Assembly: GCA_964606485.1 (NCBI GenBank)
Contig: CAZSGP010000001.1
Location: 161,085-225,084, forward strand
DNA: 64,000 nucleotides
Reading direction: 5' to 3'
From: an uncultured Planctomycetia bacterium
GTDB taxonomy: Bacteria > Omnitrophota > Gorgyraeia > 2-02-FULL-51-18
Shown here: positions 3,869 to 42,026 of the stretch, piece by piece
Numbering within the stretch: position 1 is the stretch's first letter
Layout: each line of letters begins with the position of its first letter
Position numbers and translations under genes: made by a program
The notes under the pieces: model-generated
Told to the model about the DNA's origin: nothing
Database searches by the model: none
What the model saw: only the letters and a program-made list of their open reading frames with translations

Positions 3869-3869
3869 A

Positions 3870-6055: not shown

Positions 6056-6079
6056 TTTGGTTGGGTTGAGGAGATCAGC

Positions 6080-11408: not shown

Positions 11409-11440
11409 ATTTTATTCAAAAATTAGTATAATCTTGTCTT

Positions 11441-25662: not shown

Positions 25663-27410
25663 ACATTCTAGGCCTCAACGCTTTTCACGGAGATTCATCT
25701 GCCTGTCTCGTGGTGGACGGAAAACTTGTTGCGGCGGCCGAAGAGGAGCGTTTTCGGCGCGTTAAGCATTGGGCTGGATTTCCCAAGGAAGCCATTGCGT
25801 ATTGTTTGAGAGAAGGTGGAATTTCTTTAGCAGAGATCGATAAAATTGCTATTAATCGCAACCCGAACGCGAATCTCGCCAAAAAATTTTTGTACGCGGC
25901 CTTGCATCAACCGAGCTTCCATAGTGTCTATGGCCGCATTTTAAACTCCGCCAAATTGAAACGGATCGATCTTCTAACTGCAGCCGCGCTTGGAGTGGAT
26001 CCAAAAATTCTGAAAAATAAAATTGTTCACGTCGAGCATCACCGGGCGCATCTAGCGAGCGCTTTTTTTGTTTCGGGTCTTGAGCAGGCCGCACTCGTAT
26101 CGGTAGATGGTTTTGGCGACTTTGTGAGCACCCAGTGGGGCACGGGGCATCATTCTCAGATTACCGTTAGAGATCAGGTTTATTACCCGCATTCGCTTGG
26201 GATTCTCTATTTGGCGTTGACGCAATTCTTAGGATTTCCTCACTATGGAGATGAGTACAAGGTGATGGGCCTTGCTCCTTACGGAAAGCCGGTTTATCTA
26301 GATCAAATACGAAAATTAATTCATCTTAAAAAGAATGGGTTATTTGAGCTAAATCTGGAATATTTCACGCATCACTCAAAAGGCGTTTCGATGAGCTGGG
26401 AGGATGGGCAGCCCGAAATATCTCCGGTATTTTCTGACGCGCTTGAAAAATTATTTGGACCGGCGAGGCTGCCTAGTGAAATGATTGCACCCGTTCACGA
26501 AGATATAGCGGCCTCTCTCCAGGCTGTCTATGAAGAAGTTTTTTTTCATCTGTTAAATTACGTGCAGAAAAAAACAGGGCTTAAGAATTTGTGTCTAGCC
26601 GGTGGTTGCGCCATGAACAGCGTGGCGAATGGGAAAATTTATCAGAAGACTCCTTTCGAAAAAATTTATGTGCAATCGGCTGCGGGTGATGCGGGCGGAG
26701 CGATTGGCGCTGCGTTTTACACAAGCCATCAACTTGAAAAGACAAAGCCTTCATTTGTAATGGATCATGCTTATTGGGGCCCTGAGTTTAGCGCAGAAGA
26801 AATTTTTCAGCAGCTCGATATTAAAAGGCGAGAGATTGAAAAAGAAAATTGTGTCATTAAAAAAATTGACTCTCAAGCGGATCTGTGTCGGTTGGCGGCT
26901 CAAGCCATCATTGAAGGGAAGGTCGTGGGTTGGTTCCAGGGGAGAATGGAGTGGGGACCGCGCGCCTTGGGAAACCGCAGTATTTTGGCCGATCCTCGGC
27001 GCGGCGATATGAAACAAATTTTAAATTCTAAAATCAAACACCGCGAATCTTTTAGGCCCTTTGCGCCTTCTATATTAAGAGAAGAAGTTAAGAATTGGTT
27101 TGAAACCGACGACGATGTGCCCTTTATGCTGGAAGTGTTTCAAATTAAAGCGGAGAAGCGAGCGCTCGTTCCGGCTGTCACCCATGTGAATGGCTCAGGT
27201 CGCCTTCAAACGGTGTCCTCATCGCAAAACCCTCTTTATCATGCGCTGATCACAGAGTTCTATAAAAAAACCGGCGTGCCCATGCTTCTGAATACCTCTT
27301 TTAATGAAAACGAACCGATGGTTTGCCGGCCCGAAGAAGCGCTAGATTGCTTTTTGAGAACAAAAATGGATGTTTTGGTTTTAGGTCATTTCTGCCTTGA
27401 GCGATTTTAA
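25659..27410 (+). CDS. O-carbamoyltransferase (NodU/CmcH family)
   Basis: MNILGLNAFHGDSSACLVVDGKLVAAAEEERFRRVKHWAGFP is the canonical N-terminus of NodU/CmcH carbamoyltransferases. TTG start in TTGA overlap. Confidence 0.85.
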   Translation: MNILGLNAFHGDSSACLVVDGKLVAAAEEERFRRVKHWAGFPKEAIAYCLREGGISLAEIDKIAINRNPNANLAKKFLYAALHQPSFHSVYGRILNSAKLKRIDLLTAAALGVDPKILKNKIVHVEHHRAHLASAFFVSGLEQAALVSVDGFGDFVSTQWGTGHHSQITVRDQVYYPHSLGILYLALTQFLGFPHYGDEYKVMGLAPYGKPVYLDQIRKLIHLKKNGLFELNLEYFTHHSKGVSMSWEDGQPEISPVFSDALEKLFGPARLPSEMIAPVHEDIAASLQAVYEEVFFHLLNYVQKKTGLKNLCLAGGCAMNSVANGKIYQKTPFEKIYVQSAAGDAGGAIGAAFYTSHQLEKTKPSFVMDHAYWGPEFSAEEIFQQLDIKRREIEKENCVIKKIDSQADLCRLAAQAIIEGKVVGWFQGRMEWGPRALGNRSILADPRRGDMKQILNSKIKHRESFRPFAPSILREEVKNWFETDDDVPFMLEVFQIKAEKRALVPAVTHVNGSGRLQTVSSSQNPLYHALITEFYKKTGVPMLLNTSFNENEPMVCRPEEALDCFLRTKMDVLVLGHFCLERF

Positions 27411-27481
27411 TCAGAGATCCCTAAGACCGTATTTTATGGGTAGGGTATTTATCGGGTTTCACTGGCCACCTGGCGATTAAG

Positions 27482-28195
27482 ATGAAACTGTCCATTATTA
27501 TTCCCACGTATAACGAAGAAATGACGATTGAGGAGCTTGTTTCCTTGGTGCAAAGCGTCAAGTATCCCGTGGAGTATGAAATTATTATCGTGGATGACGC
27601 TTCGATCGACCGCACATTCGAGAGGGAGATTATGCTAAAGCTCAGGGATCAATCCGAGCAAATCCGAATTTTTAAAAATCAAATCAACCGCGGTAAAGGT
27701 TTTTCGGTGCGCAAAGGGATTCGAAGGGCCAAGGGCGACATCATCATCGTTCAAGACGCTGATCGCGAGTACGATCCGCGAGAAATTCCAAAACTGATCG
27801 AGCCGATCTTGAAAGGAGCCGAGCAGGTTGTGTATGGCAGTCGATTTATGACTTCTTCTCGTCCGAGGGGGATGGCATTTGCGAATCGATTTGCGAATCA
27901 GTTTTTGACGATGCTGACCAATTGGATGTTTGGTTTAAAGCTGACGGATATGGAAACGTGCTACAAGGCGATTCGAGCAGATTTGTTAAAAAGTCTACCG
28001 CTCCAAGAAAATCGATTTGCGTTTGAGCCGGAAATCACCGGGCTACTTGCGCTTAAGCATGTTCCGATTATGGAGATGCCGATTTCTTATTCGGGAAGAA
28101 CTTCAAAAGAAGGAAAAAAGATTAAAGCGGTTGATTTTTTATTTGCGATATGGGCGCTGGTCCGGTGCAGGTTTTGGAGCGGGTTAGGAGATTAG
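27482..28195 (+). CDS. GT2 polyprenyl-phosphate sugar synthase (DPM1/ArnC-like), second copy
   Basis: MKLSIIIPTYNEEMTIEE, IIVQDADREYDP (DxD). Confidence 0.75.
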   Translation: MKLSIIIPTYNEEMTIEELVSLVQSVKYPVEYEIIIVDDASIDRTFEREIMLKLRDQSEQIRIFKNQINRGKGFSVRKGIRRAKGDIIIVQDADREYDPREIPKLIEPILKGAEQVVYGSRFMTSSRPRGMAFANRFANQFLTMLTNWMFGLKLTDMETCYKAIRADLLKSLPLQENRFAFEPEITGLLALKHVPIMEMPISYSGRTSKEGKKIKAVDFLFAIWALVRCRFWSGLGD

Positions 28196-29404
28196 ATGAA
28201 AGTTATTTTCGTGAACCGCTATTTTTATCCGGATATTTCCGCGACCAGTAAAGTGGTCTCGGATCTCGCAATGGGTCTTGCGCAAAAAGGGTTGAAGATT
28301 CACGTGGTGACAAGCCGCCAAAGACTGGATGAGCCTTCAGCGAAATTAGCATCTCATGAAATTGCACACGGTGTTCACATTCATCGGGTTTGGAGCAGTT
28401 CATTCGGCCGATCCAATCTTCTGCTGCGTTTTTTTGATTACCTTACGTTTTATGGGTCTGCGTTCTGGAAGCTCATGTGGATTGCAAGTTCAAAGGACGT
28501 GGTGGTGGCCATGACGGATCCACCACTCTTGTCTATTGCGGCTATGGAAGCTGTGTTTTGGAAAAGAGCAAAGCTTATCAACTGGAACCAAGATCTTTTT
28601 CCGGAAGTAGCTGAGAAGCTTGGTTTGAGGATTGTTCGAATGCTGAGCCCATTTATAAAACCCCTTCGAAACCTGTCTTTAAAATTTGCCACTAAGAACG
28701 TGGTTATTGGCCAGGCCATGGGATCGCGTCTTTCTGCGTGCGGAGTTGAGCGTAGCAAGATCGAGCTTATTTTTAATTGGGCAGACGGAGAAAAAATCAA
28801 ACCTGTTGAGGCAGCGTCTAACCCTCTGCGGAAGCAGTGGGGTTTTGAAGGCAAGTGGGTGGTGGGGTACTCGGGAAATATGGGTCGCGCGCATGAATTT
28901 GAAACTATCTTGGACGCGTCCGGTGATTTGATAAATCGAGAAGATATTGTTTTTTTGCTCATTGGAAACGGTAAAAAAAGAGAATGGCTTGAAAATGAAG
29001 TCAAACGCAGAAATTTAAAAAATGTTTTTTTTAAACCCCTTCAGCCTGATGAAACCTTGGCGCTGAGTTTGGGGGTGAGCGATATTCATTTGGTGACACT
29101 GGAGCCGAGTCTAGAAGGCTTAATTGTTCCGAGTAAGATTTATGGGATTTTGGCGGCGGGGCGTCCGACGATTTACGTCGGGGATACCCAGTCAGAGATA
29201 TCTGAACTGCTTGCTACGCATCACTGCGGCGCTTCGGTTTCTCGTAGCGATTCCAAAAAATTGGCGAGTCAAATCTGTGCATGGGTGTCCGACCGTGATA
29301 TATTAAGTCAGATGGGTCGCAATGCGCGTCATGTTTTTGAGGAGAAATTCGATAAGCCGTTGGCGCTAGCCCAATGGGCGGCTTTAATTAGGAACGTTCA
29401 ATGA
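28196..29404 (+). CDS. GT4-family glycosyltransferase (WcaI/WbuB-like)
   Basis: MKVIFVNRYFYPDISATSKVVSDLAMGLAQKGLKIHVVTS is the characteristic N-terminus of this GT4 subgroup. Confidence 0.8.
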   Translation: MKVIFVNRYFYPDISATSKVVSDLAMGLAQKGLKIHVVTSRQRLDEPSAKLASHEIAHGVHIHRVWSSSFGRSNLLLRFFDYLTFYGSAFWKLMWIASSKDVVVAMTDPPLLSIAAMEAVFWKRAKLINWNQDLFPEVAEKLGLRIVRMLSPFIKPLRNLSLKFATKNVVIGQAMGSRLSACGVERSKIELIFNWADGEKIKPVEAASNPLRKQWGFEGKWVVGYSGNMGRAHEFETILDASGDLINREDIVFLLIGNGKKREWLENEVKRRNLKNVFFKPLQPDETLALSLGVSDIHLVTLEPSLEGLIVPSKIYGILAAGRPTIYVGDTQSEISELLATHHCGASVSRSDSKKLASQICAWVSDRDILSQMGRNARHVFEEKFDKPLALAQWAALIRNVQ

Positions 29405-30576
29405 GCGAAACGTTTGTTGTTGCGATTTTAAATTTAAGTGTGTTTGCGATGGCTGCAGTCATCTGCTATGGCATCACATTTGGTTTGAGAAGTGTATCTT
29501 ACCGCCTGGATCTTCTCGACTATCCATCGGAACGAAAAATTCACAAAGCGCCGATGCCGTTTCTCGGAGGATTAGGTCTTTTTATTTCGTTTTGGTTCGT
29601 GGTGTTTACCGGATTTTTATTTTGTGTTGTGCTGGGCCCGCGGCTGAGCATTACCCAATGGGGTCACTCGTATCAAATATTGCAGGGAGCTCTTGCAATT
29701 TTTCCAAAAATTCTATGGATCTTTATTGGAAGTTTAATTATTTGGTCGGTCGGAATTTTGGATGATAAGTTTTTATGGTCGCCGATTAAAAAATTAATCG
29801 GGCAGATCGTTGCGGCGTTTATTTTAATTGATTTAGGCCTGACCATTAATCTTGTGAGCAGTTTAGGGTTCCTAGGGTATCTAGCAACGTTTATTTGGAT
29901 TCTTTTGATTATTAATGCTTTTAATTTTATCGATTCACTGGACGGACATTGTGCTGGAATCGCTTTTATTTCGTGCGGCATTTTTTTCTGGATTACTCAA
30001 ATCATCGACCAGACGCTAGTGGGATTTTTTCTAGTGGCATTTGCAGGGTCGTTGTTCGGATTTTTGCCGCATAATTTTAAGCCAGCTAAAATTTTTCTAG
30101 GGGACAATGGCAGCTTGCTGATCGGCTACATGATGGCGGCATTTACACTGCTCTGCCGCTACCAGTCTCCCCAAACACCGCATTTAATCACGGTGTTTAT
30201 CCCGGTGCTTGTTTTCGGGGTTCCCATTTATGATACGTTGTCGGTGGTGGCGGTGCGGCTTCTGAGAGGCCAAGCTCCATGGAAAGGGGACCGCAATCAT
30301 TTTGCGCACCGGCTTGTCAAAATTGGAATGAGCGACAAGGTGGCGGTTGTGTTTTCGTATTTCATCGCCTTTACCCTTGGCCACGTTGCTTTACTCATGA
30401 CCCAGGTGGACTGGTTCGGCGTGTTCATCATTGCTATTATTTTTATGTCGATTATCGGAATGATCGCCTTCCTTGAGTTTTATATCGCGCAGCGCGCCAA
30501 AATCTCTGAATCTCTCGCCAAAGAAAACCGTCGGCGCCGCGAGGACATCCGGGGCTTTGAAAACGACGTTTTTTAA
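29401..30576 (+). CDS. Polyprenyl-phosphate sugar-1-phosphate transferase (WecA/MraY superfamily), initiating enzyme
   Basis: NAFNFIDSLDGHCAGIA (the NxxNxxDGxDGL motif of the MraY/WecA family) and about 10 TM segments. Confidence 0.8.
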   Translation: MSETFVVAILNLSVFAMAAVICYGITFGLRSVSYRLDLLDYPSERKIHKAPMPFLGGLGLFISFWFVVFTGFLFCVVLGPRLSITQWGHSYQILQGALAIFPKILWIFIGSLIIWSVGILDDKFLWSPIKKLIGQIVAAFILIDLGLTINLVSSLGFLGYLATFIWILLIINAFNFIDSLDGHCAGIAFISCGIFFWITQIIDQTLVGFFLVAFAGSLFGFLPHNFKPAKIFLGDNGSLLIGYMMAAFTLLCRYQSPQTPHLITVFIPVLVFGVPIYDTLSVVAVRLLRGQAPWKGDRNHFAHRLVKIGMSDKVAVVFSYFIAFTLGHVALLMTQVDWFGVFIIAIIFMSIIGMIAFLEFYIAQRAKISESLAKENRRRREDIRGFENDVF

Positions 30577-30597
30577 AGCTCTCCTCATCCGAGGATC

Positions 30598-30625
30598 TTG
30601 ACAATTGTTAACAAATGAATAGAAT
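30598..30625 (+). promoter_or_regulatory. Sigma70-like promoter TTGACA-16-TAGAAT with palindromic operator (ACAATTGT / TTGTTAACAA) in the spacer, upstream of the ABC operon
   Basis: Read directly: TTGACA at 30598-30603, TAGAAT at 30620-30625, perfect palindrome TTGTTAACAA at 30605-30614. It sits in a 62-nt gap after about 30 kb of gap-less genes. Confidence 0.5.
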
Positions 30626-30638
30626 AGTCTAGAAATCT

Positions 30639-31586
30639 ATGGTTGAAGCCAAGAATCTCTCTATGTTTTATGGCCCCACCAAGGCGCTCGACTCGGTCTC
30701 GTTTCGCGTGGCTGAGAACGAAGTGGTTGGTCTTTTGGGTCCGAATGGCGCAGGCAAGACTACGATTATGCGCATCTTGACCACTTTTATTTATCCCACC
30801 AGCGGAACGGCGTCGGTCTGCGGCATCGATGTCACCAATAACCCCATTCAAGCGCGTCAAAATATTGGTTATCTCCCAGAGTCGCCTCCCTTATATATGG
30901 ATATGCGAGTTGATGAATTCATCGATTTTGTCGGGCGCGCCCGCGGTTTAAGCGGTCGAAAACTGGCTGAACGTAAGGACTGGGGCGTGGAAGCGTGCGG
31001 GGTAAAGCCGGTTTGGAAGCATCAAATGAGCGAGTTGTCGCTTGGTTTTCGCCAGCGCGTCGGTATTTTTCAAGCGCTGATTCACGATCCCAAAGTGGTA
31101 ATTTTGGACGAACCCACCTCAGGTCTTGACCCTATTCAAATTATTGGTGTGCGCAACCTTATTCGGGATCTTGCCAAAACTAAGACTGTTTTATTTTCGA
31201 CACACATTCTCCAGGAAGCCTCTGCGGTTTCCCAACGCCTTTTTATTATTAATCAAGGAAAGATTGTGGCTCAAGGAACTACCGCGGAACTTCAAGGCGG
31301 CGCAAAAAAAGAAGAGCTAATTTATCTTTCAGCTGATGCCCCGAAGGCGGATTTGGAAAATGCGCTAGCGGCCCTCAAACCTGTGAAGCGGGCCGTGTTC
31401 GTGGATACTTATCGCGGGGCACCCCGGTTTTCAATTTCAGTTTCTTCATTTGAAGAGGCGGCTCGGGAAATTTCAAACGTTTGTCATGAGCGTAAGTGGC
31501 TCGTGAAGGAATTTTCGTCGCATGAAGCCTCTCTAGAGGAAGTGTTTGTCGAATTTTTTAAACGTTCGAAAGGCAAGGTCGAGTAG
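30639..31586 (+). CDS. ABC transporter ATP-binding protein (ABC-2/GldA-like)
   Basis: Walker A LLGPNGAGKTTIM, signature LSLGFRQRV, Walker B VVILDEPTSGLDP. Confidence 0.85.
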   Translation: MVEAKNLSMFYGPTKALDSVSFRVAENEVVGLLGPNGAGKTTIMRILTTFIYPTSGTASVCGIDVTNNPIQARQNIGYLPESPPLYMDMRVDEFIDFVGRARGLSGRKLAERKDWGVEACGVKPVWKHQMSELSLGFRQRVGIFQALIHDPKVVILDEPTSGLDPIQIIGVRNLIRDLAKTKTVLFSTHILQEASAVSQRLFIINQGKIVAQGTTAELQGGAKKEELIYLSADAPKADLENALAALKPVKRAVFVDTYRGAPRFSISVSSFEEAAREISNVCHERKWLVKEFSSHEASLEEVFVEFFKRSKGKVE

Positions 31587-31589
31587 ACA

Positions 31590-34037
31590 ATGCGTCATTT
31601 TTGGACCATTTTTAGACGGGAACTCGGAGCGTATTTCAATTCTTCGATCGCCGTTATTTTCGTCATTGTATTTACCGTTTTAAACAACGGACTTTTCATG
31701 CTCCAGTTTTTCCAAATTGGAAAAGCCGACATGAGAATGTTTTTTAATTTCCTTCCTTATTCGCTCGTTGTATTTATCCCGGCGATTTCCATGCGTCTGT
31801 GGGCCGAGGAAAAAAGAACGAGCACGTTCGAGCTTCTCCTGACTTTTCCGATGCGGCCGGGTGAGCTTGTGCTCGGCAAATACATGGCGAGCCTAGTTTT
31901 TTATATTTTTACGCTTCTATCCACCGTGATGGTGCCGATCATGATTCAAATGCTTGGGCAAGCGGATCCAGGCCCGATTCTAGGGGGGTATTTTGGCGCA
32001 TTTTTAGCGGGAGCCTTGTTTCTGGCTATCGGAATTTTTATATCCGGTCTTTGCAAGGACCAGATTGTTGCATTTATTTTGTCGATGATTGTTTCATTCA
32101 CGCTGTTTCTTGTGGGCCTTGATTCAGTGGCGCTTTTCTTTGATGGTTGGATTTCCGGGTTTGGCACGCTGATTAAAAATACAATTGGCATGACCGGACA
32201 TGTGGCGGGTTTAAGCCGCGGAGTGCTGGACACGAAAGACGTGCTCTACTTCTTGATTTTAATTGGTGTGTTTTTATTTCTCAACGGTCTTTCTTTGGAA
32301 GGCCGCATGAAACCGAAAGCCAAAGTTGTTTTCTCGACGGCCGTGTTCGTGGGTCTTTTGTGCGCGGTGCTTGCGTCTTGGCTTTTGCAGGATGTGAATC
32401 TTGGTCGGTTTGATTTAACACAAGATAAGTCCTACACCATTTCCGATGTTTCGCTTAAAGTGCTTAAGAATTTAAAAGTGCCCGTGCAGGTAAAGCTTTA
32501 TGTCTCGCCGGTAGAGAGCATGCCGACGATCCTGAAGACACTGGAACAGCAAGTGTCAGATAAGCTTTCTGAAATGCGCGCTGCTTCCGACGGCAAACTT
32601 AAGTTCCGCGTGATTCATTTAGAGCCGCTCGACGCCAAAGACGAAGAAGTTCGAAAGAATCTGCAGGAGCAGGGTGTCGCTCCGTTTCAAGTGGAGTCTA
32701 TCCAAAAAGACGAAGTCGGCGTGAAGCTTATTTACTCGACACTTGTGATCGAGTATAAAGAAAAGCCTTCGGAAATCATCCCTCGAATTGTCCCGCAAAC
32801 GCTTCAGACGTTGGAGTACCAGCTTCTATCGCGCATTTATAAAATGACGCAGGAAGACAAGCCTAGAGTTGCTATTTATGCACCGGTGAAGAATGAAGAG
32901 CTCTCGCCGGAACTGAGTCAACTGCTTGGTGCTGCCGGCGTGAAAGATCAAAAAGACTACGAGGATGATTTTAAAACAGCCTCGCTTTTAGTGAAGAACA
33001 ACGGTTATGAAACCAAGCGCGTGGCCCTCACCGCGTCGGATTTGATTCCGGAGAAAACGACGACGCTCGTGGTTTTGAATCCTGGGACGCTGAATGAGCG
33101 CCAGCGCTATGAAATCAGCAAATTTTTGTATCAGGGTGGGCATGTGGTGGTGGCCGCTCAAGGGTTTGAATTTGGTTATAAGCGCGAGGAGTCAGGGGTT
33201 GAAGCCGAGCCCAAAAAGCAAAGTCTCTCCGATTTAAACGCGCTTCTTGAAAAATGGGGCGTGAAAGTCAGCGAAGATATTTTGTGCGACAAGGAATCGG
33301 AAGTTATTTCGATCACCACCGGCCAGACGATTGGGCCATTTGCGCTTGAGATGCCCGTAAAGTTCCCTAATCAAATCGTGATCCGGGAATCGACGATCAA
33401 TAAGACTTCTGCTTTTACCGACAGGCTCCCATCGCTTTTTTATCTCTGGGGTTCGGCGCTTGAGCTTTCGAATGATGCGCTTTCTCAGTCGGGACTTAAG
33501 TCCACCGTGCTTTTCACCTCTAGCGCCAATAGCTGGAAAATGCCCAACGATGGACACACGAATTTAAGTGAGAAAAATAGCAATCCACCGGCTGAAACAA
33601 AGGGGCTTTATCCGCTCGCGGTTCTCCTGGAAGGAAAATTTTCAAGCGCTTTTACCGGTAAAGTGCCCGCATGGCCGGCGACCGATGGACAGGAAGCTGC
33701 GAAAATCGAAGACATTCAACTCGGAGAGCAGAAGCCGGGCAAACTGATCGTCGTGGGTTGCTACAAAACATTCTCGGAAGAATCGATTCAAAATCCCGGC
33801 AATATTAATTTCTATGCCAATATCATCGACGGACTTACGATGGGCGAGGACCTAATCGCGATCCGCTCGAAGTCGGGCGTGATCCGAGACATTAAGCGCG
33901 TTTCCAATGCGGAAAAAATTGGTTACCGTTTTTTTGCGGTATTCCTATTGCCGCTTATTTTGCTCATCCTCACCTTTATTAAAGTGTTTTTACGCAAAAA
34001 AGAAAAAGAGTTTTACCTTAAAGCATCTCAAGTATGA
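31590..34037 (+). CDS. ABC-2 family permease fused to a large GldG-like extracytoplasmic auxiliary domain (GldF-GldG-type fusion)
   Basis: N-terminal ~240 aa has 6 TM helices (ABC-2 permease). It is followed by a ~550-aa soluble region and a terminal TM (LLPLILLILTF), as in GldG-type ABC auxiliary proteins. The family assignment is from architecture, not a searched match. Confidence 0.55.
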   Translation: MRHFWTIFRRELGAYFNSSIAVIFVIVFTVLNNGLFMLQFFQIGKADMRMFFNFLPYSLVVFIPAISMRLWAEEKRTSTFELLLTFPMRPGELVLGKYMASLVFYIFTLLSTVMVPIMIQMLGQADPGPILGGYFGAFLAGALFLAIGIFISGLCKDQIVAFILSMIVSFTLFLVGLDSVALFFDGWISGFGTLIKNTIGMTGHVAGLSRGVLDTKDVLYFLILIGVFLFLNGLSLEGRMKPKAKVVFSTAVFVGLLCAVLASWLLQDVNLGRFDLTQDKSYTISDVSLKVLKNLKVPVQVKLYVSPVESMPTILKTLEQQVSDKLSEMRAASDGKLKFRVIHLEPLDAKDEEVRKNLQEQGVAPFQVESIQKDEVGVKLIYSTLVIEYKEKPSEIIPRIVPQTLQTLEYQLLSRIYKMTQEDKPRVAIYAPVKNEELSPELSQLLGAAGVKDQKDYEDDFKTASLLVKNNGYETKRVALTASDLIPEKTTTLVVLNPGTLNERQRYEISKFLYQGGHVVVAAQGFEFGYKREESGVEAEPKKQSLSDLNALLEKWGVKVSEDILCDKESEVISITTGQTIGPFALEMPVKFPNQIVIRESTINKTSAFTDRLPSLFYLWGSALELSNDALSQSGLKSTVLFTSSANSWKMPNDGHTNLSEKNSNPPAETKGLYPLAVLLEGKFSSAFTGKVPAWPATDGQEAAKIEDIQLGEQKPGKLIVVGCYKTFSEESIQNPGNINFYANIIDGLTMGEDLIAIRSKSGVIRDIKRVSNAEKIGYRFFAVFLLPLILLILTFIKVFLRKKEKEFYLKASQV

Positions 34038-35059
34038 AAATTCAAAAACTAATTGGACTTATTTTTCTGCTGGCTCTGCTCGTTGTCGGCGTTGTTGTGA
34101 AATCAAATCACGACCGCGCAGAGCGCGTGTCTATGGAAGCAAAGTCTGTGGAAGTGGTAACCTTCAATAAGGAGTTGGAATTTTCGGCGGTGCGCAAGAT
34201 TACCGTGACGAAGGGCTTGGATACAACTTCTCAAATTACGATGCTCAAGAATGACCAAAATGCATGGACGATGCCGACTCATTTTGGAGCGGGTGCCCGC
34301 AAGTCGTTGGCCGAAGAGCTGATCAAAAAATTAACGGCTCTAAAAGGGGAGCTTCGATCCGATTCGGATGGAGTGCTGGTTGACTATAAGATCGACGATT
34401 CCCAAGGGCTTCATGTGGTGCTTGAAAACGCATCGGGGAAGGTCTTGACCCACACGGTGCTCAGCTTAGAGCGCCCAGGGCGCTCCGGAAATTTTGTTCG
34501 AACCACCCAAGGCCCCACCGTGATTGTCTCGAAAGAAGATATTTTGATGATTCTTGGCTTTTACTCAAAAGACTCGAAACTTGATCCTAAAAATTTCATG
34601 GATTTAAAAGTGGCAAACTTTGACGCTTCCAAGGTTAAGCGCCTAGAGCTCGTTCAACCCGATTCCAAGTTTGGGGCGCTGACTCTCGTTCAGTCTGGGT
34701 CCGGGGCAGCAGCCAAATGGGCTTTTGAGCCGGTCACAAGCGATGAGATTGACCCATCCAAAATGAGCGAGTTCCTGTCCAATGCCTCGAGCGTCTATGC
34801 TATGGATGCGCTAGACCCCGCGGGGACTTCCTACGGTTTTTCCGCAAAGCCATGGATACGCGTTACCGGAGAAGACCAAGGCAAGCCTTTTGAAATCTCT
34901 TACACGCTTGGCAAGAAAGTGGATGCCGACAAATCCATTTATCTCAAAGTACTTCCCGCCGGAAATGTGTACTCAGTGAGCGAAGGAAATCTCGAATACC
35001 TCTCCAAAAAGGACAAGGTTTTTTTTATTAAGCCTGAGTCCACCGAAGCTAAAAAATAA
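34034..35059 (+). CDS. N-terminally anchored extracytoplasmic protein, DUF4340-like accessory of GldG-type ABC systems (tentative)
   Basis: Single N-terminal TM (LIGLIFLLALLVVGVVV), followed by a beta-rich domain with no catalytic motifs. The call rests on the position after the GldG-like gene. Confidence 0.3.
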   Translation: MKIQKLIGLIFLLALLVVGVVVKSNHDRAERVSMEAKSVEVVTFNKELEFSAVRKITVTKGLDTTSQITMLKNDQNAWTMPTHFGAGARKSLAEELIKKLTALKGELRSDSDGVLVDYKIDDSQGLHVVLENASGKVLTHTVLSLERPGRSGNFVRTTQGPTVIVSKEDILMILGFYSKDSKLDPKNFMDLKVANFDASKVKRLELVQPDSKFGALTLVQSGSGAAAKWAFEPVTSDEIDPSKMSEFLSNASSVYAMDALDPAGTSYGFSAKPWIRVTGEDQGKPFEISYTLGKKVDADKSIYLKVLPAGNVYSVSEGNLEYLSKKDKVFFIKPESTEAKK

Positions 35060-35086
35060 GCTCCTCGTAACACCCATTTCTTTTTA

Positions 35087-35115
35087 TTGACAGGTCTAAG
35101 CGCATTTGATATATT
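35087..35115 (+). promoter_or_regulatory. Consensus sigma70-like promoter TTGACA-17-TATATT
   Basis: TTGACA 35087-35092 and TATATT 35110-35115, inside a 136-nt intergenic gap. Confidence 0.5.
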
Positions 35116-35125
35116 TTCTGTACTT

Positions 35126-35139
35126 CCAGTAAGTACTGG
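35126..35139. promoter_or_regulatory. Inverted repeat CCAGTA-AG-TACTGG just downstream of the -10, candidate operator for the adjacent HTH protein
   Basis: Perfect 6-2-6 inverted repeat read directly at 35126-35139 (it contains the AGTACT palindrome). Sits at roughly +5 to +18 relative to the predicted start site. Confidence 0.35.
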
Positions 35140-35195
35140 ATATACAAGGATAGCAGTAATCATCAAACATTTGAGAATTATAAAAATCAAAGTAC

Positions 35196-35450
35196 ATGCC
35201 TGAAAAAAACGGCTCGCTCCTAACGGCTCAGGAAATATCCAAAAAATTTAAGGTGGCATATCCCACCATTAATCACTACACCGATTTGGGATTTCTCCAG
35301 ATTGTGAAGCGTCAGGGTAACCGCCGCATGTATGATGAGAGCGATGTGAAGAAACGCCTCGAAACCATCTCAGCCCTTGCCAATGAAGGCTACCCTTTAA
35401 GACTAATCCGTAAAAAGCTACTTGTAGATGGAGGGGGTGTGGAGCTATGA
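35196..35450 (+). CDS. Small MerR-like helix-turn-helix DNA-binding protein (84 aa)
   Basis: LTAQEISKKFKVAYPTINHYTDLGFLQIVKRQGNRRMYDESDV is a MerR/excisionase-type HTH (the 'T...I..Y...GLL....R...G.R.Y' pattern). ATGA overlap with the downstream ATPase gene. Confidence 0.5.
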   Translation: MPEKNGSLLTAQEISKKFKVAYPTINHYTDLGFLQIVKRQGNRRMYDESDVKKRLETISALANEGYPLRLIRKKLLVDGGGVEL

Positions 35451-36319
35451 GCTACTATCGCATCTTGGGCTTTGAAAAAGAGCCGTTCTCAACCAGCCCC
35501 GATCCGGAATTTTTCTACTCTTCGCGCGAACATGAGCGCGCACTCACCAATGTCTTGATTGAGCTTCGCTTAAAGCGGGGTCTGAGCGTGGTGCTGGGCG
35601 ATGTGGGCACCGGAAAGACCACACTGTCTCGTAAGCTCGTGCAGGATCTGAAAAACCGCGAAGACTGCTTGTTCCACATTGTCTTAGACCCTTCCTTTGA
35701 GGACCGCACACTTTTTTTAAGATCGCTCGTGCGGAATTTTGGAGCAGCCCCCGAAGCCGAAGCCCAGAAAATGGACGGAACCGCACTCCGTGAAGCATTT
35801 GAGCGCTTTCTCTTTCAAAAAGGGGTGGTGGAAAACCGCACCGTGATTCTTGTGATTGACGAAGCGCAGATGCTTGATCCGGTGACACTTGAAAGCCTGA
35901 GGCTTTTACTCAATTACGAAACCAATCAATTTAAATTGCTTCAGCTTGTGCTGCTCGGGCAGACCGAGCTTTTAGGCACGATTAAAGCGATCCCTAATTT
36001 TTTAGACCGGATTAGCTTTAAGTCGACGCTGAATCCCCTGGATTACAACGAAATGAAGGAAATGATTTTCTTTCGCATTTTGCAAGCCGGGTACAAGGCG
36101 AAAATGGATTTATTTTTAGAAGAGGCTCTGCGGGAAATTTACCAGCACACACAAGGGTACCCGAGACAGGTGACGATGCTTTGTCACCGCGCGCTCAAAG
36201 AGATGCTGATGACGAAGAAAATGGCAGTAGACTTGCAAATTATCGAAACGCTTATCGAAAGTGAGGTAGAGTCCGGATGGCACAGGAGCCAGGGCTTACT
36301 CCAGAAAAACAATTACTAA
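35447..36319 (+). CDS. ExeA/GspA/MshM-like AAA+ ATPase (secretin-associated)
   Basis: Walker A VVLGDVGTGKTTLSRKL, Walker B VILVIDEAQMLD, LVLLGQTEL. The family's characteristic N-terminus YYRILGFEKEPFSTSPDPEFFY is present. Confidence 0.75.
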   Translation: MSYYRILGFEKEPFSTSPDPEFFYSSREHERALTNVLIELRLKRGLSVVLGDVGTGKTTLSRKLVQDLKNREDCLFHIVLDPSFEDRTLFLRSLVRNFGAAPEAEAQKMDGTALREAFERFLFQKGVVENRTVILVIDEAQMLDPVTLESLRLLLNYETNQFKLLQLVLLGQTELLGTIKAIPNFLDRISFKSTLNPLDYNEMKEMIFFRILQAGYKAKMDLFLEEALREIYQHTQGYPRQVTMLCHRALKEMLMTKKMAVDLQIIETLIESEVESGWHRSQGLLQKNNY

Positions 36320-36990
36320 ATCTGATTGAGAACGGTCAGAAAGCTGAGACCGGCACAGGCACGGGTGTGCCCGGAGCGCCGGCCGCGGCTCAAACGAAGA
36401 CCGCTGCTCGGTCCGGACGTTTTTCTTTGGGAGCTTTGCGGGGCGCGGTGCTTGGAAGATTTTCATTCTTTAAGCGCACGACGACGAAGAAGATTTCAAA
36501 ATCAAAAATTCGCCTGAGCCTCGGACTGGCGAATAAGTTTTTAGCGGCCGCCGCAGTGGTGTTGTTTTTTTACGTAGCGTCCGACGTGACTTTTTCTATG
36601 ATGGAACTCGGCAAGGCGCCGAACTTACTGTTTCAGGATGGAAAAGCACAGACTCCAAGTGCGGCTGGACAGGTTTCTCCTTTAAGAGACCAAGCTTATT
36701 ATTCGCAAAAAATATCCTCACGGGATATTTTTAAGGGAGAGGCAGAAAAAAGGGAAAAGAAAAAGGAAGCAGCTGCGCCGCTGGCTGATGCCGGGGAAAA
36801 ATTTAAGAACCTTTCACTTGTCGGAATTTCGTGGTCGAGCAATCCGGATGCGATCATTGAGGACAAGGACCGACAGAAGACTTTTTTTGTGAAGCGCGGA
36901 CAGATGGTGGGGGCGGATATCAAGGTAGAGTCTATTTTAAAAGACCGGGTGATCTTAAGCTTTGACGGCGAGGAATTTGAATTAAAATGA
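36277..36990 (+). CDS. Membrane-anchored periplasmic protein with PilP/GspC-like C-terminal beta domain (candidate secretin-docking component)
   Basis: Single TM (LAAAAVVLFFYVASDV). The C-terminus FFVKRGQMVGADIKVESILKDRVILSFDGEEFEL resembles the PilP / GspC-HR secretin-binding domain. ATGA overlap with the secretin gene. Confidence 0.3.
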   Translation: MAQEPGLTPEKQLLNLIENGQKAETGTGTGVPGAPAAAQTKTAARSGRFSLGALRGAVLGRFSFFKRTTTKKISKSKIRLSLGLANKFLAAAAVVLFFYVASDVTFSMMELGKAPNLLFQDGKAQTPSAAGQVSPLRDQAYYSQKISSRDIFKGEAEKREKKKEAAAPLADAGEKFKNLSLVGISWSSNPDAIIEDKDRQKTFFVKRGQMVGADIKVESILKDRVILSFDGEEFELK

Positions 36991-38786
36991 TTCCAAAAAC
37001 ACGCGATGGAAAATGGGTATTGGCACTACGGGTTATCGTTTTAAGCTTCATTATTTTCTTATTGCCGATTTCTGACCGGCCGACGCCAAAAGCGATTGCG
37101 GCGGATGAAGAGGCGGCGAGTTCGGAGTCTCAGGATCAGTCATCTCCCACCGAAGAGCCCACAGCTCAAGATGTTTCATCCGATGCGCCTCTAACCCCGC
37201 TTTCTGAACAGCAGACACCCGCAGACCAATCCATTCAGGCAGGCTCCGCTGGGCTTGATGAAAAAGTGTCGCTCGATCTAAGAAACATCGACGTGACGGA
37301 CGCGCTCCGGTTTTTGGCTCAAAAAGCGGGTTTGAATCTCGTCATTTCAAAATCCGTCACCGGCCGCGTTCAACTGCTTCTCAACAACGTACCCGTGCGG
37401 GACGTGATGGACCTTATTATGATCACGGGCCAACTCGCCTATGAAAAAAGAGGGGACATCTATTACATTATGACTGAAGCGGAATTCAAAGAACGCTTTG
37501 GGCGAAAATTTTCGGACACCCGCCAAGTCAAAGTGTTTCGTTTGAAATACGCTGTGCCGGACCAGGCTTTTTCACTGTTCGAAATTTTAAAGAGCGAAAT
37601 CGGTCGTTTGCTGGTGGACCCTGAAACGGGAACCGTGCTCGTCATGGATACGCAGGAAAACATTGACCGTATGCAGAGGGCGCTTGAAGGACTTGAACAA
37701 AAGCGCCAAATAAAAGTATTCGATTTAAAGTATGCCAAAGCCTTGGATGTGGAAGCGCGTCTCAAAACACAGCTGGACGCTAAAAAGGTGGGGCTTGTGA
37801 GTTCTGATGAGCGCACCAACCAAGTGATTGTTGAAACGATCAGCGGACGAATGGAAGATGTGGAAGCGCTGATCGCGGATCTGGATCAAAAAACGCGCGA
37901 AGTTTCCATTGATGCAAAAATCGTTAAAGTTACCTTGAGCGACGACTTTAATGCGGAGATTCAGTGGGAAGGACTGGCTTCCCGAGTCGCCAAATACGGC
38001 ACTCAATATTTTTCCAATCACCCGTTTGCGCCGGTGGTTCGCACGAATCGTACGCAGGTTGATAATTTTACGAATATTCAACCAACGGCCAATCCCGCGG
38101 CGGGGGTGAAGAGCACATTGACTGAGAATCTATTTCTCGGGTTTATTGATAATGACGATGCGTTCGAGCTTTTAATCAACTTCCTAAAGACTATTGGGAA
38201 AACTAAAATTTTATCCAATCCAAAAATTACTGTGACCAACAATCAGGAAGCCAAGATTCACGTCGGTGAAAAACAGGCGTACGTGACCACCACAACGACG
38301 ACGGGTCAAAACACCACGACGACCGCCGAATCCGTGACCTTCATCGATATTGGTATTCAATTAGCAGTGACCCCAACGATTAACGCGGATGATTATGTGA
38401 CGATGAAAGTGAAGCCCGAAATTTCAAGCGTCTCAACATTTCTAATTACCCCCAGCGGAAACAAAATTCCGATTATTGATAGCTCCACCGCGGAAACCAA
38501 TGTCATGGTTAAAAATGGAACCTCGATCGTCATTGGGGGTCTTCGAAAGGATGAAAAGACTGAAACCCGGAAGAAGATTCCACTGCTGGGCGATATTCCT
38601 ATTCTCGGGAAGCCCTTTAACTCGTTTAACACGACGAATGAGCGCTCCGAGCTCCTGATTGTGATTACGCCAAACATTGTCCAGGGGGACACGCTGGTTA
38701 GCGAAGGACGACCTGTGGGAGAAAAACCGTTTTTGCCTTATACCGACTATTCTGATTATAATAGCCCCATGAAGGTGAGAAAATGA
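36987..38786 (+). CDS. Secretin (GspD/PilQ/MshL family outer-membrane channel)
   Basis: Signal/anchor WVLALRVIVLSFIIFLLP. The N-terminal region LDLRNIDVTDALRFLAQKAGLNLVISKSVTGRV is N0/secretin-N like. The C-terminal secretin domain reads VMVKNGTSIVIGGLRKDEKTETRKKIPLLGDIPILGKPFNSFNTTNERSELLIVITPNIV. Confidence 0.85.
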   Translation: MIPKTRDGKWVLALRVIVLSFIIFLLPISDRPTPKAIAADEEAASSESQDQSSPTEEPTAQDVSSDAPLTPLSEQQTPADQSIQAGSAGLDEKVSLDLRNIDVTDALRFLAQKAGLNLVISKSVTGRVQLLLNNVPVRDVMDLIMITGQLAYEKRGDIYYIMTEAEFKERFGRKFSDTRQVKVFRLKYAVPDQAFSLFEILKSEIGRLLVDPETGTVLVMDTQENIDRMQRALEGLEQKRQIKVFDLKYAKALDVEARLKTQLDAKKVGLVSSDERTNQVIVETISGRMEDVEALIADLDQKTREVSIDAKIVKVTLSDDFNAEIQWEGLASRVAKYGTQYFSNHPFAPVVRTNRTQVDNFTNIQPTANPAAGVKSTLTENLFLGFIDNDDAFELLINFLKTIGKTKILSNPKITVTNNQEAKIHVGEKQAYVTTTTTTGQNTTTTAESVTFIDIGIQLAVTPTINADDYVTMKVKPEISSVSTFLITPSGNKIPIIDSSTAETNVMVKNGTSIVIGGLRKDEKTETRKKIPLLGDIPILGKPFNSFNTTNERSELLIVITPNIVQGDTLVSEGRPVGEKPFLPYTDYSDYNSPMKVRK

Positions 38787-39925
38787 ACCCAGCTATTCCG
38801 GAACCGGAGATTCCCATCAAGGCCGCCAAGCCCAGGAAAACTCTGCCCCCCATTAAATTGCTCGACCCTCTTACGCTGCTCGTGCTGGCCCTCGGGATTT
38901 CCGTGAGCTTAAATTTATTCGTCCCGTACTTTTTAATTAAAAAAGGCGCGTTGGGATCTGCCGAGCTTAGGCAAGACCACACCAAGCTTAAAAAAAATTA
39001 TGAAGAGCTGCAGAATAAAAAAAATGAGGTTGAAGCTGATCGCAATAACATTTTAGCGCAGACAAAAATTCTCTTGTCTGAGAAGTCCAAATTTTCAGAA
39101 ACTCAAACCGAGCTTGAGGAAGCCAAAAAAAGCAACGGGATTTTGATGTCTCAAAAAGTCAAACTGCTTTCGAGAAGCGAGGAGCTAGAGTCCCGCAGCG
39201 AGGAAATGTCTCAAAATTACAGCCGCTTACAGTCTAATTATTTAGACCTGCAGGCTCAACACGAGACTCTGCAAACGGAAAATATTGAATTGAAGGTTAA
39301 GCTGAATCGGTCGGTTGAAACCTCGCCTCAGTATTCCAAATTGAGCATTGAGCGGAATAATTTGGTTAAGGAGAATAAAAAGCAAAGCGATCAAATTAAA
39401 TCTCTGACCGATCAAACAAAGAAGATTCAGGAGCGTTTGGCAAAATTGGCCGGACGGGAGGGCCAGCTCTCCAAGCAAATACAGGCCCTTAATAAAACCG
39501 TGCGCGATCTCAAATCAGAAAAAGCTAAACTTGAAAAAGCTAACCAAAATGTGAATCGAATCGTGGCCGAGGGGCCGGCGCACTTCAAGGATATGGCCAA
39601 TCAAAACAAGAACCTCATCAAAGAAACTTCCACTATGCACTACAATATGGGTGTATTTTTTACTCAGAAAAAAGAATACGACCGGGCGCTTACGGAGTTT
39701 CAGCGGGCGCTAGACTTTGATCCGACAAATGCAAAAGTGTTGTACAATTTAGGCTACCTGTGTGCAGAACATTTTGAAAATCACGAAAAGGCGGTTGAGT
39801 ATTTTAAGCGGTATTTGCAATTAAGCCCCAGCTCGAAAGAGTCGGAGGCTATTAAGAGCTACGTGTTGGTTCGGCAGGCCTATACGGGACCTGAAAGATT
39901 TAAGGATATGAAGAAAGAGTTTTAA
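38783..39925 (+). CDS. N-anchored coiled-coil protein with C-terminal TPR repeats (MshN/PilF-like candidate)
   Basis: TM LLDPLTLLVLALGISVSL, then ~230 aa of heptad-rich sequence (K/E/L/Q), then TPR-like YNMGVFFTQKKEYDRALTEFQRALDFDPTNAKVLYNLGYL... ATGA overlap with the secretin gene. Confidence 0.55.
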   Translation: MNPAIPEPEIPIKAAKPRKTLPPIKLLDPLTLLVLALGISVSLNLFVPYFLIKKGALGSAELRQDHTKLKKNYEELQNKKNEVEADRNNILAQTKILLSEKSKFSETQTELEEAKKSNGILMSQKVKLLSRSEELESRSEEMSQNYSRLQSNYLDLQAQHETLQTENIELKVKLNRSVETSPQYSKLSIERNNLVKENKKQSDQIKSLTDQTKKIQERLAKLAGREGQLSKQIQALNKTVRDLKSEKAKLEKANQNVNRIVAEGPAHFKDMANQNKNLIKETSTMHYNMGVFFTQKKEYDRALTEFQRALDFDPTNAKVLYNLGYLCAEHFENHEKAVEYFKRYLQLSPSSKESEAIKSYVLVRQAYTGPERFKDMKKEF

Positions 39926-39946
39926 CTAAGGTAAACGGAGGATGGA

Positions 39947-40537
39947 ATGAAGAAGCAGACTGTTGTTATTTTGGGGTTGGGATTGCTGGTTTCAGTGTGC
40001 CTAAGCACCGCGCAAGCGGCTGATTCTAAAAGCGATTCTAAAATTGAAAAAAAGTTGGCCGAAAACCAAGCCAAAAGAAAAGCCGAGTTGAAAGACACAG
40101 AGTGGAAGGTGACCTTTTATTCCAATAAACCGACGGATAAAGACGCGGAAAATGGATCACTTGTCTTCTCCGCCGAAACGATGACATTCAATGGTTTTAA
40201 TAAAGTAGATCTTGGGACCATTGGTTATACGCTGACGGCCTATGCGGACAATGACAAGGGAATGCTTGAAACCTATAAGCCCACAAAGGATGGAAATATT
40301 TCGTTGCGGGCTGATTGGCAAGGACAGATCATGAATGGTGTTATCAGCGAGCAGAAAAATGGTGGTAAGGATGTAAAGACTTACCGCTTCACCAGCGTGA
40401 ATCAGGTTTCGCCTTTAGCGAATCAAGATGAATCAAAAAAGGAGTCTTTGGAAGCGGCGGCTCCGGTAGATGCGGCGCTCCCAGTAATGGCATCAACTGA
40501 AAAAGCGGTTGAAAAATCCGAAAAGAAGAAGCGCTGA
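39947..40537 (+). CDS. Small secreted protein (signal peptide + ~100-aa TEWKV-type beta domain), unknown function
   Basis: Signal peptide MKKQTVVILGLGLLVSVCLSTAQA and a strong SD (GGAGGA). The domain core DTEWKVTFYS...ADWQGQIMNGVISEQ...KTYRFTS is shared with the C-terminus of the next gene. Confidence 0.5.
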   Translation: MKKQTVVILGLGLLVSVCLSTAQAADSKSDSKIEKKLAENQAKRKAELKDTEWKVTFYSNKPTDKDAENGSLVFSAETMTFNGFNKVDLGTIGYTLTAYADNDKGMLETYKPTKDGNISLRADWQGQIMNGVISEQKNGGKDVKTYRFTSVNQVSPLANQDESKKESLEAAAPVDAALPVMASTEKAVEKSEKKKR

Positions 40538-40564
40538 TCTTCTATCGTATTGAGATTTCTGTAA

Positions 40565-40598
40565 ACAAGGGGGTCTTTCAAGGACCCCCTTGTTTTTT
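40565..40598 (+). terminator. Rho-independent terminator
   Basis: ACAAGGGGGTC-tttcaag-GACCCCCTTGT followed by TTTTTT (11-bp GC-rich stem, 7-nt loop, U-run), 28 nt after the stop at 40537. Confidence 0.8.
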
Positions 40599-40609
40599 AA
40601 TATCCAAAA

Positions 40610-40638
40610 TTGACACCGCTGTATGTCCGCACTATGAT
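40610..40638 (+). promoter_or_regulatory. Sigma70-like promoter TTGACA-17-TATGAT
   Basis: TTGACA 40610-40615, TATGAT 40633-40638, 36 nt upstream of the ATG at 40674. Confidence 0.5.
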
Positions 40639-40673
40639 AGCCCTGTGGTAAATATTGCGACCCTCAGAGACTG

Positions 40674-41909: not shown

Positions 41910-41997
41910 TCCACCAAAAATTTAATTAAATCTATATATTATATTTACTAACAAAATTGATAATTTAAATTCGTTTTCATATTAAATATTTAAGCTA

Positions 41998-42026
41998 TTG
42001 ACAAAGGAGTTAACACAATGTAATCT
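41998..42026 (+). promoter_or_regulatory. Candidate promoter TTGACA-17-TAATCT inside an AT-rich 238-nt intergenic region
   Basis: TTGACA 41998-42003. The -10 is weak. Region 41910-42000 is about 80% A+T with A/T tracts (UP-element-like). Confidence 0.3.

Follow-up and report, generated by a model that had tools for sequence, protein, structure and literature searches.

The locus considered here raises the question of what is done in the bacterial envelope by a three-gene ATP-binding cassette (ABC) operon whose proteins recall the gliding-associated GldA, GldF, and GldG proteins of Bacteroidetes. With its promoter, the operon occupies positions 30598-35059 of a 64-kb stretch of DNA from an uncultured member of the Omnitrophota (this whole stretch is referred to as the window), and it encodes an ABC ATPase, a permease fused to a GldG-like part, and a DUF4340 protein. 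It adds a new member to a known, widespread, and uncharacterised family of envelope ABC systems. Systems of the GldA/F/G type with a DUF4340 partner occur very widely, and for none of them is a substrate known. The operon is best read as encoding a three-gene envelope ABC machine, most likely an ATP-driven exporter or mechanotransducer that acts on an envelope component (rough probability 0.55).

For comparison, 123 related loci (numbered with the prefix L) were gathered from genome and metagenome collections, and the proteins of the window were placed on them by tblastn. Eleven distinct loci with at least 51% identity are referred to as the close loci. The sequence of the fusion protein occurs unchanged on a contig of the Logan assembly of run SRR12487046 and on a 546-kb NCBI contig. 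Its closest relatives (58-65% identity) come from metagenome bins of Candidatus Omnitrophota/Omnitrophica, some of which are mislabelled as other phyla, and are annotated as Gldg family proteins.

The first gene (30639-31586, + strand) encodes a GldA-like ABC ATPase of 315 amino acids (aa), which scores above the cutoff of PF00005 and reaches 293.6 bits with TIGR03522. It contains a Walker A motif (GPNGAGKT, residues 34-41), a variant C-loop (LSLGFRQR, of the pattern LSxGxRQR), a Walker B motif (VVILDE, residues 153-158), and H189. Based on the intact Walker A motif, Walker B motif with its catalytic Glu, C-loop, and H-loop, the ATPase is predicted to be catalytically competent. The C-terminus carries a weak DrrA-type domain. 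The length of the protein differs among loci, being 315-331 aa in the window, L004, L063, and the distant loci and 244-251 aa in L002, L003, L008, L041, and L064; the C-terminal domain of about 70 aa (a weak DrrA1-3_C match) has been lost in one subclade.

The second gene (31590-34037, + strand) encodes the fusion protein of 815 aa, in which Pfam and NCBIfam profiles recognise an ABC-2/GldF-like permease followed by DUF7088 and ABC_transp_aux. The permease domain (residues 1-240; 31590-32309, + strand) is of the GldF-like ABC-2 (type V) kind, with 160.8 bits for TIGR03518 and six transmembrane (TM) helices in the hydropathy profile. The GldG-like part (32325-33992, + strand) comprises TM7 (residues 246-264), DUF7088 (278-387), ABC_transp_aux/GIFT (468-732), and TM8 (783-801). 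The scores for PF09822 (137.3 bits, cutoff 34.7) and PF23357 (65 bits, cutoff 27.8), along with a predicted periplasmic region of about 520 aa (residues 265-782) held between TM7 and the C-terminal anchor TM8, place the protein among the PF09822/"Gldg family protein" members with DUF7088.

An AlphaFold2 model of the fusion protein, built from 66 homologues, had a predicted local distance difference test (pLDDT) value of 84.2 and a predicted template modelling (pTM) score of 0.78. In Foldseek comparisons, the best match of the membrane domain was NosY of NosDFY (E 7e-5 to 5e-4; template modelling score TMt up to 0.71, in the adenylyl-imidodiphosphate (AMPPNP) state), and the next were CcmB, ABCG5/ABCG8, and PmtCD. 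The ABC_transp_aux domain best matched the N-terminal GIFT domain of IFT52 (5fmr, 5fms; E ~1e-6, TMt 0.63-0.69). IFT52 is a eukaryotic cytoplasmic scaffold of intraflagellar transport; at 11-13% identity the two have the fold alone in common, which gives no clue to a ligand. Among the 66 homologues there is no invariant Cys or His column, which makes a catalytic triad of the glutamine amidotransferase type unlikely, and the GIFT/amidotransferase-like periplasmic domain is probably non-catalytic. A sequence-profile search of the PDB with the fusion protein gave no matches.

The third gene (34034-35059, + strand) encodes a DUF4340 protein of 341 aa (PF14238, 44.1 bits, cutoff 25) with an N-terminal anchor at residues 6-24 and no lipobox. 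In most loci the gene directly follows a GldG-type gene, as it does here, and both this position and the score assign the protein to the DUF4340 partners of such systems. Its AlphaFold2 model (56 homologues) is very confident (pLDDT 94.8, pTM 0.85) and consists of two tandem beta/alpha modules, predicted to be periplasmic; yet Foldseek found no significant PDB neighbour for it, and a comparison of its profile with PDB sequences gave no matches. The homologues were taken from an exhaustive HMMER search. A word-indexed protein search returned nothing but the query itself for the single sequence and only six proteins for a 14-sequence alignment. At E ≤ 1e-3 there are 4,969 relatives, each the representative of a 50%-identity cluster. 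Relatives vary in length from about 330 to about 816 aa. Those of 749-816 aa, from L010, L032, L071, and L073 (Omnitrophota and Verrucomicrobiota-labelled), have apparently grown by module addition. A further gene of about 190 aa, encoding an N-terminal anchor and giving no Pfam match, follows DUF4340 (or GldFG) in L003, L004, L008, L041, L063, L064, and L066 (e.g., L063 4886-5467); it is missing from the window, where a second promoter directly follows DUF4340.

The earlier note is accurate in what it observed and about half right in what it made of it. The gene content downstream of the promoter is as given there, and its assignment of the proteins to the GldA, GldF-GldG, and DUF4340 types holds, with PF00005, PF09822, PF23357, and PF14238 all above their cutoffs. 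The connection with gliding or surface-protein handling that it took from Bacteroidetes does not carry over. Although GldA, GldF, and GldG are the best NCBIfam matches, and the GldG alignment covers positions 6-550 of 552, all three models miss their equivalog cutoffs (TIGR03522, 293.6 vs. 402.6; TIGR03518, 160.8 vs. 288.5; TIGR03521, 147.5 vs. 389.85), and the three-gene core also occurs in many Omnitrophota and Hydrogenedentota loci with no secretin or giant gene nearby. A gliding role is not transferable because of these scores and because the core is found in varied envelope contexts. Judged by their sequences, the ATPase and the fusion protein are related to the Flavobacterium gliding proteins without being orthologous to them.

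Like GldA/F/G of Flavobacterium johnsoniae, the system combines an ABC ATPase with an ABC-2 permease and a GldG protein whose large periplasmic loop is held by a TM anchor at either end. It differs in that GldF and GldG are fused, a DUF4340 gene comes next, no other gld or type IX secretion system (T9SS) genes lie nearby, and the host belongs to the Omnitrophota rather than the Bacteroidota. For F. johnsoniae GldA/GldF/GldG, the substrate is likewise unknown, while GldF has been reported to be necessary for GldK/PorK to be stable in Flavobacterium (PMC9127263).

With regard to other DUF4340 proteins, SAR11 OG1814 was reported to be conserved beside ABC components and predicted to be a member of their complex (bioRxiv 10.64898/2025.12.11.693642). 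The DUF4340 protein VSP_RS39600 of Verrucomicrobium spinosum was assigned an "essential domain" by a sliding-window call only, its whole-gene score being non-essential; A2528 of Synechococcus PCC 7002 is stress-induced, and PA4040 of P. aeruginosa carries the same domain. These four proteins of DUF4340 ABC operons share their Pfam domain with the one described here, and none has a known function. A literature search on PA4037-PA4040 and on GldG in other phyla returned nothing functional, and no paper was found that connects GldG or this ABC module with the Omnitrophota. The practical value of the operon is that of a pointer: the organism is uncultured, and DUF4340 is present in the tractable P. 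aeruginosa, V. spinosum, and Synechococcus PCC 7002.

NosDFY is a type-V ABC system that acts on a periplasmic partner and does not carry out bulk transport. The likeness to NosDFY(L) (PDB 7o0y, 7o12, 7qba) lies in the membrane domain, for which NosY is the best structural match; unlike in NosDFY, the periplasmic partner here is a fused GIFT domain together with DUF4340 and not the NosD beta-helix. NosD, NosL, and NosZ were not found in the window, and the protein, whose resemblance to NosFY-type systems would be one of mechanism only, is not counted among them. Since the membrane domain is nearest to NosY and CcmB in structure, a periplasm-directed hand-over or mechanotransduction is favoured over classical transport. 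The type-V fold, the competent ATPase, the doubly tethered periplasmic domain, and the modular DUF4340 partner together point to an ATP-driven action at the outer face of the inner membrane.

In the proposed mechanism, the fusion protein would form a dimer powered by a pair of GldA-like ATPase subunits, and each of its copies would consist of a type-V permease tied through TM7 and TM8 to a periplasmic DUF7088 and GIFT domain of about 520 aa, presumed to be non-catalytic. The DUF4340 protein, anchored in the inner membrane and predicted to expose its tandem modules to the periplasm, would be the third partner. ATP hydrolysis would move the membrane domains, and the motion would be passed on to the tethered periplasmic domain and to DUF4340, in a manner similar to that of NosFY, CcmAB, and further type-V ABC systems. 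As a result, an envelope component may be extracted, handed over, or held on the periplasmic side. A glycan linked to a lipid, or a factor of surface or outer-membrane assembly, would be the most plausible substrate; nutrient import or gliding motility is not a plausible role. The operon would be transcribed from its own strong, conserved sigma-70-type promoter into a messenger RNA (mRNA) with little or no leader. The ABC module and the neighbouring secretin module can swap their order, and the two are probably co-transcribed in some loci.

The order ATPase-GldFG-DUF4340 is kept in most loci (about 120, from the Omnitrophota, the Hydrogenedentota, and others), with GldF and GldG as separate genes in a few of them. 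It is found at 43-65% identity in the Omnitrophota, and also in the Hydrogenedentota and in bins that carry the labels Verrucomicrobiota, Planctomycetota, and Sumerlaeota (32-41%). In the close clade, the usual order starts with a glycan cluster ending in a WecA-like gene, which is followed by MerR-ExeA-T2SSC-secretin-TPR and the ABC module, and continues with the ~190-aa gene, a homologue of a 196-aa secreted protein (unk196), a Y1_Tnp-like gene, a small gene, and a giant open reading frame (ORF). This order was found in L003, L008, L041, L063, L064, L066/L116, L067, and L097. The ABC module precedes the secretin module in the window and in L004, while L002 is rearranged again. The swaps of the ABC and secretin modules among close loci suggest that the neighbourhood is conserved and that the modules are movable units with promoters of their own. 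As far as gene content can tell, the operon is in this Omnitrophota lineage part of a conserved surface-biogenesis neighbourhood composed of the glycan cluster, the secretin module, the ABC module, and the giant gene.

The earlier note had placed the ABC module directly upstream of a secretin module and a giant surface protein. This arrangement is confirmed in the window, and the synteny extends through the nearest clade; it does not extend beyond that clade, and even there the order varies. Only loci with at least 51% identity have the secretin and ABC modules side by side; outside the close clade the two are not neighbours. In Ca. Velamenicoccus archaeovorus, the core adjoins a family 2 glycosyltransferase (GT2) and PMT_2. 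In L126 (an Omnitrophota bin, 999-7851), the ABC module comes immediately after a BamA-Skp-LpxD-LpxC/FabZ-LpxA-LpxI cluster for the outer membrane and lipid A. In the Hydrogenedentota (e.g., L081 14715-15836 and L059 7241-8665), 10 locus groups have an HtrA/DegP-like protease (Trypsin_2 and PDZ) directly after DUF4340, and six have a WbaP-like sugar transferase (Bac_transf) upstream of the core. One further set of recurrent Hydrogenedentota neighbours, "cluster 3", was discarded as antisense ORF artefacts in GC-rich DNA. To judge from these predicted neighbours, their shared theme is cell-envelope biogenesis and not one fixed partner.

Several points weigh against an envelope exporter or mechanotransducer. 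All the evidence is computational. The resemblance to NosY is one of fold only (~19-22% identity), and no partner of the NosD/NosL type accompanies it. DUF4340 is undetectable in the close loci L063/L107 and L005 and is possibly dispensable for that reason. The operon lies directly after a WecA-like gene and a 30-kb cluster without a recognised Wzx or Wzm/Wzt, which keeps plain glycan export in play. As for transcription, the start of the mRNA is deduced from spacing only, and no terminator was found at 30577-30638 in a terminator scan, so that read-through from the upstream gene is possible.

The alternative that survives best is that the operon encodes an exporter, a functional analogue of Wzm/Wzt, for a heavily methylated glycan linked to undecaprenyl pyrophosphate and made by the upstream cluster, with the GldG and DUF4340 parts taking over its periplasmic hand-over. 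The cluster fills positions 1-30576 and is unusually rich in FkbM-type methyltransferases, of which it has six besides two methyltransferases of other kinds. It also contains about a dozen glycosyltransferases of the GT1/GT4, GT2, and GT9 families (two GT9 genes), a PMT_2 membrane glycosyltransferase, a UDP-N-acetylglucosamine 2-epimerase, an oxidoreductase, an acetyltransferase, an epimerase/dehydratase, and a carbamoyltransferase. It ends with a WecA-like initiating phosphoglycosyl transferase, 62 nucleotides (nt) before the start of the ABC operon, and no Wzx, Wzy, or Wzm/Wzt was recognised within it. The WbaP-like transferase near the core in the six Hydrogenedentota groups and the GT2 and PMT_2 genes in V. 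archaeovorus are also in favour of this explanation.

The type-V ABC fold is common to Wzm and TarG. The operon accordingly shares its fold class with Wzm/Wzt, KpsM/KpsT, and TarG/TarH and adjoins an initiating transferase and a glycan cluster, but those exporters are without a GldG-type periplasmic domain and a DUF4340 partner. The earlier note had held that placement of the permease in a Wzm/KpsM family would make the system an ordinary glycan exporter. No such placement was obtained: PF01061 stays below its cutoff (26.1 vs. 26.9), there is no NCBIfam match to Wzm, KpsM, TagG, or Wzt and no Wzt_C domain, the nearest structures are NosY and CcmB, and Wzm and TarG lie outside the top 50 structural matches of the fusion model. 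In addition, a conserved promoter of its own precedes the operon, in most close relatives the glycan cluster is separated from the ABC module by the secretin module, many distant loci are without a glycan cluster nearby, and two unassigned proteins of the cluster with at least eight TM helices (17076-18500 and 24151-25662) could be parts of a Wzx/Wzy-type system. Export of the clustered glycan is therefore a tentative and rather unlikely explanation.

A second alternative regards the operon as a dedicated accessory of a secretin and giant-protein pathway, which would stabilise or assemble the secretin complex or would anchor or export the giant protein. The secretin module (35196-39925, + strand), which in the close clade lies next to the ABC module, before or after it, was recognised with Pfam and NCBIfam profiles. 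Its genes, all on the + strand, encode an 84-aa MerR_1/BldC-like helix-turn-helix (HTH) protein (35196-35450), an ExeA/GspA-like AAA ATPase (35447-36319), a T2SSC/T2SSB-like protein (36277-36990), the secretin (36987-38786), and a coiled-coil/tetratricopeptide repeat (TPR) protein (38783-39925). The giant ORF runs from 42821 on the + strand and is still open where the window ends at 64000; it encodes at least 7,060 aa with a signal-peptide-like N-terminus, and its first 2,500 aa gave no Pfam match. Giant ORFs homologous to it come after the same set of genes in L003, L005, L008, L041, L063, L064, and L066.

In favour of such an accessory role, the secretin, the ABC module, unk196, the Y1_Tnp-like gene, a 251-aa gene (unk251), and the giant ORF are kept together in the close clade despite the swapping. 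In three close loci without the promoter (L003, L005, and L067), the ATPase gene lies 19-50 nt 3′ of the TPR gene, which suggests that the ABC and secretin modules are co-transcribed there, and in the window no terminator was found between 35059 and 40563 in a scan of 25000-42000. A parallel can be drawn with the need of GldK/PorK for GldF noted above, and giant genes of Omnitrophota have been reported beside loci resembling type II secretion systems (T2SS) (bioRxiv 10.1101/2023.11.21.568195). However, adjacency is confined to the close clade, and in more distant Omnitrophota (including V. archaeovorus) as well as in every Hydrogenedentota locus the core is retained with no secretin or giant gene next to it. 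Moreover, the papers on Omnitrophota giant genes do not list the ABC module among the conserved neighbours. A dedicated accessory is thus unlikely. In one Omnitrophota clade, the operon is tied to a secretin-assembly module next to a giant gene and sometimes appears to share a transcript with this module; the clade-specific link is worth noting but does not define the function.

It is also conceivable, with very little probability, that the ABC module serves as the inner-membrane engine of a hybrid trans-envelope system, is coupled through the GspC/GspB-like protein to the otherwise platform-less secretin beside it, and delivers the giant surface protein or its glycan coat; if true, this would be an ABC-powered secretin pathway unlike T2SS, type IV pili, and type III secretion systems. 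A true orthologue of the Bacteroidetes GldA/GldF/GldG serving surface gliding is extremely improbable in spite of the full-length GldG alignment, in view of the sub-cutoff scores, the absence of any other gld, spr, or T9SS gene from the 64-kb window and about 125 related loci, and the wide occurrence of the core in phyla not known for gliding of the Bacteroidetes type.

The envelope ABC machine is preceded by a promoter that was proposed in the earlier note to contain a palindromic operator. Every gene of the window is on the + strand, and three gaps separate the gene modules (30577-30638, 35060-35195, and 40538-40673). Both strands of the window contain only three promoter matches of at least 11/12, all on the + strand and one in each of these gaps. 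The first, TTGACA-16-TAGAAT (30598-30625, 11/12 in the consensus scan), was described in the note as the first transcriptional punctuation after about 30 kb of gapless genes, which is roughly right; smaller gaps do exist upstream (27411-27481, 71 nt; 11409-11440, 32 nt; 6056-6079, 24 nt), none of which holds a consensus-level promoter.

The first promoter is composed of TTGACA at 30598-30603, a 16-nt spacer, and TAGAAT at 30620-30625, with the ATG of the ATPase gene at 30639. The pattern TTGACA-N16-TA[G/A]AAT is located upstream of the ATPase gene in six of the 11 close loci (L002, L004, L008, L063, L064, and L097), and the exact pattern occurs nowhere else in those loci, save before the MerR-like gene in two. 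Across the promoter-bearing orthologues the two hexamers and their 16-nt distance do not vary, and the spacer sequences bear no relation to one another, which argues that the promoter is real. We take it, on this pattern of conservation, to be a conserved sigma-70-type promoter with a predicted start site.

The -10 hexamer is separated from the ATG by 13 nt in the window, by 8-12 nt in five of the six promoter-bearing loci, and by 38 nt in L008. The start codon is fixed by a conserved N-terminus, M-[IV]-[EQV]-A, and no Shine-Dalgarno (SD)-like sequence precedes the ATPase gene in the window or in five close promoter loci. Given the 8-13 nt from the -10 to a conserved start and the missing SD-like sequence, the mRNA of the ABC operon probably has little or no leader, and the locus would be a clean case of probable leaderless expression in the Omnitrophota. 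An SD of the AAGG type is present in two of the promoter-less close loci (L003 and L067). A perfect TATAAT was also observed within 11428-11441, in the 32-nt gap and 7 nt 5′ of the ATG at 11441, with no good -35; this gene inside the glycan cluster could have a second leaderless start.

The two palindromes claimed for the first promoter are present. The 10-bp TTGTTAACAA is at 30605-30614 and thus exactly in the spacer, and the 8-bp ACAATTGT overlaps it at 30601-30608. The proposal that TTGTTAACAA is a real operator of a dimeric regulator, for example the MerR-like protein, and that the first promoter is regulated through it, may draw on this placement and overlap and on the HTH gene 4.5 kb downstream. 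It is not supported by the comparison, a check that the earlier note itself had named, since TTGTTAACAA is absent from the spacers of all six orthologous promoters (that of L063 is an A/T run only). Perfect 10-bp palindromes number 89 in the window, one or more would fall in the 62-bp gap with a chance probability of 0.08 (0.045 with the spacer alone shuffled), there is no second copy of TTGTTAACAA in the window, and neither TTGTTAACAA nor ACAATTGT recurs there beyond expectation. MerR-type operators normally lie in spacers of 19-20 nt, whereas the spacer here has 16. In addition, the motif that is conserved after the promoter of the MerR module differs from TTGTTAACAA and is not present at the first promoter. 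An operator at this site is consequently quite improbable, and the palindrome is probably incidental.

The conserved motif belongs to a second promoter, TTGACA-17-TATATT with a TG extension (35087-35115, + strand), which was found in the consensus scan before the secretin module and has counterparts at the same place in the orthologues. Four nt after its -10 starts a 26-bp palindromic element, GTACTTCCAGTA-AG-TACTGGATATAC (35120-35145), which is the only such site in the window and a candidate operator. The GTACTTCCAGTA-AG-TACTGGATATAC element is found at the same position before the MerR-like gene in L002, L003, L004, L008, L064, and L066, with the consensus G[T/C]ACTTnnnGTA-N2-TACnnnAAGT[A/G]C. 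When the arms were compared by hand, their outer and inner bases were conserved, while the middle bases varied and were not always complementary, a pattern more in keeping with a protein operator than with an RNA stem. The obvious candidate to bind this element is the 84-aa MerR_1/BldC-like protein, which may be autoregulatory.

An Rfam scan of 29-43 kb gave as its sole result a sub-threshold match resembling a small nucleolar RNA on the minus strand, which was taken as chance. The only strong, long-stemmed terminator-like site in the scanned 25000-42000 is an intrinsic terminator with a 15-bp stem and a T-run at 40563-40595 (+ strand).

Among the remaining genes, all on the + strand, one in the glycan cluster (2768-3868) encodes a protein with a squalene-hopene-cyclase C-terminal-like repeat. 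The gene for the 196-aa secreted protein unk196 (39947-40537) stands before the terminator. After it, with a promoter of its own at 40610-40638, comes a gene for a 411-aa protein with a Y1_Tnp (IS200/RAYT-like) N-terminal domain (40674-41909), and the unk251 gene is located between this gene and the giant ORF. The Y1_Tnp-like gene is syntenic in all close loci (42-45% identity), and the C-terminal ~160 aa of its product are homologous to the neighbouring unk196 (E 4e-5); it looks like a resident, domesticated gene and not a mobile element.

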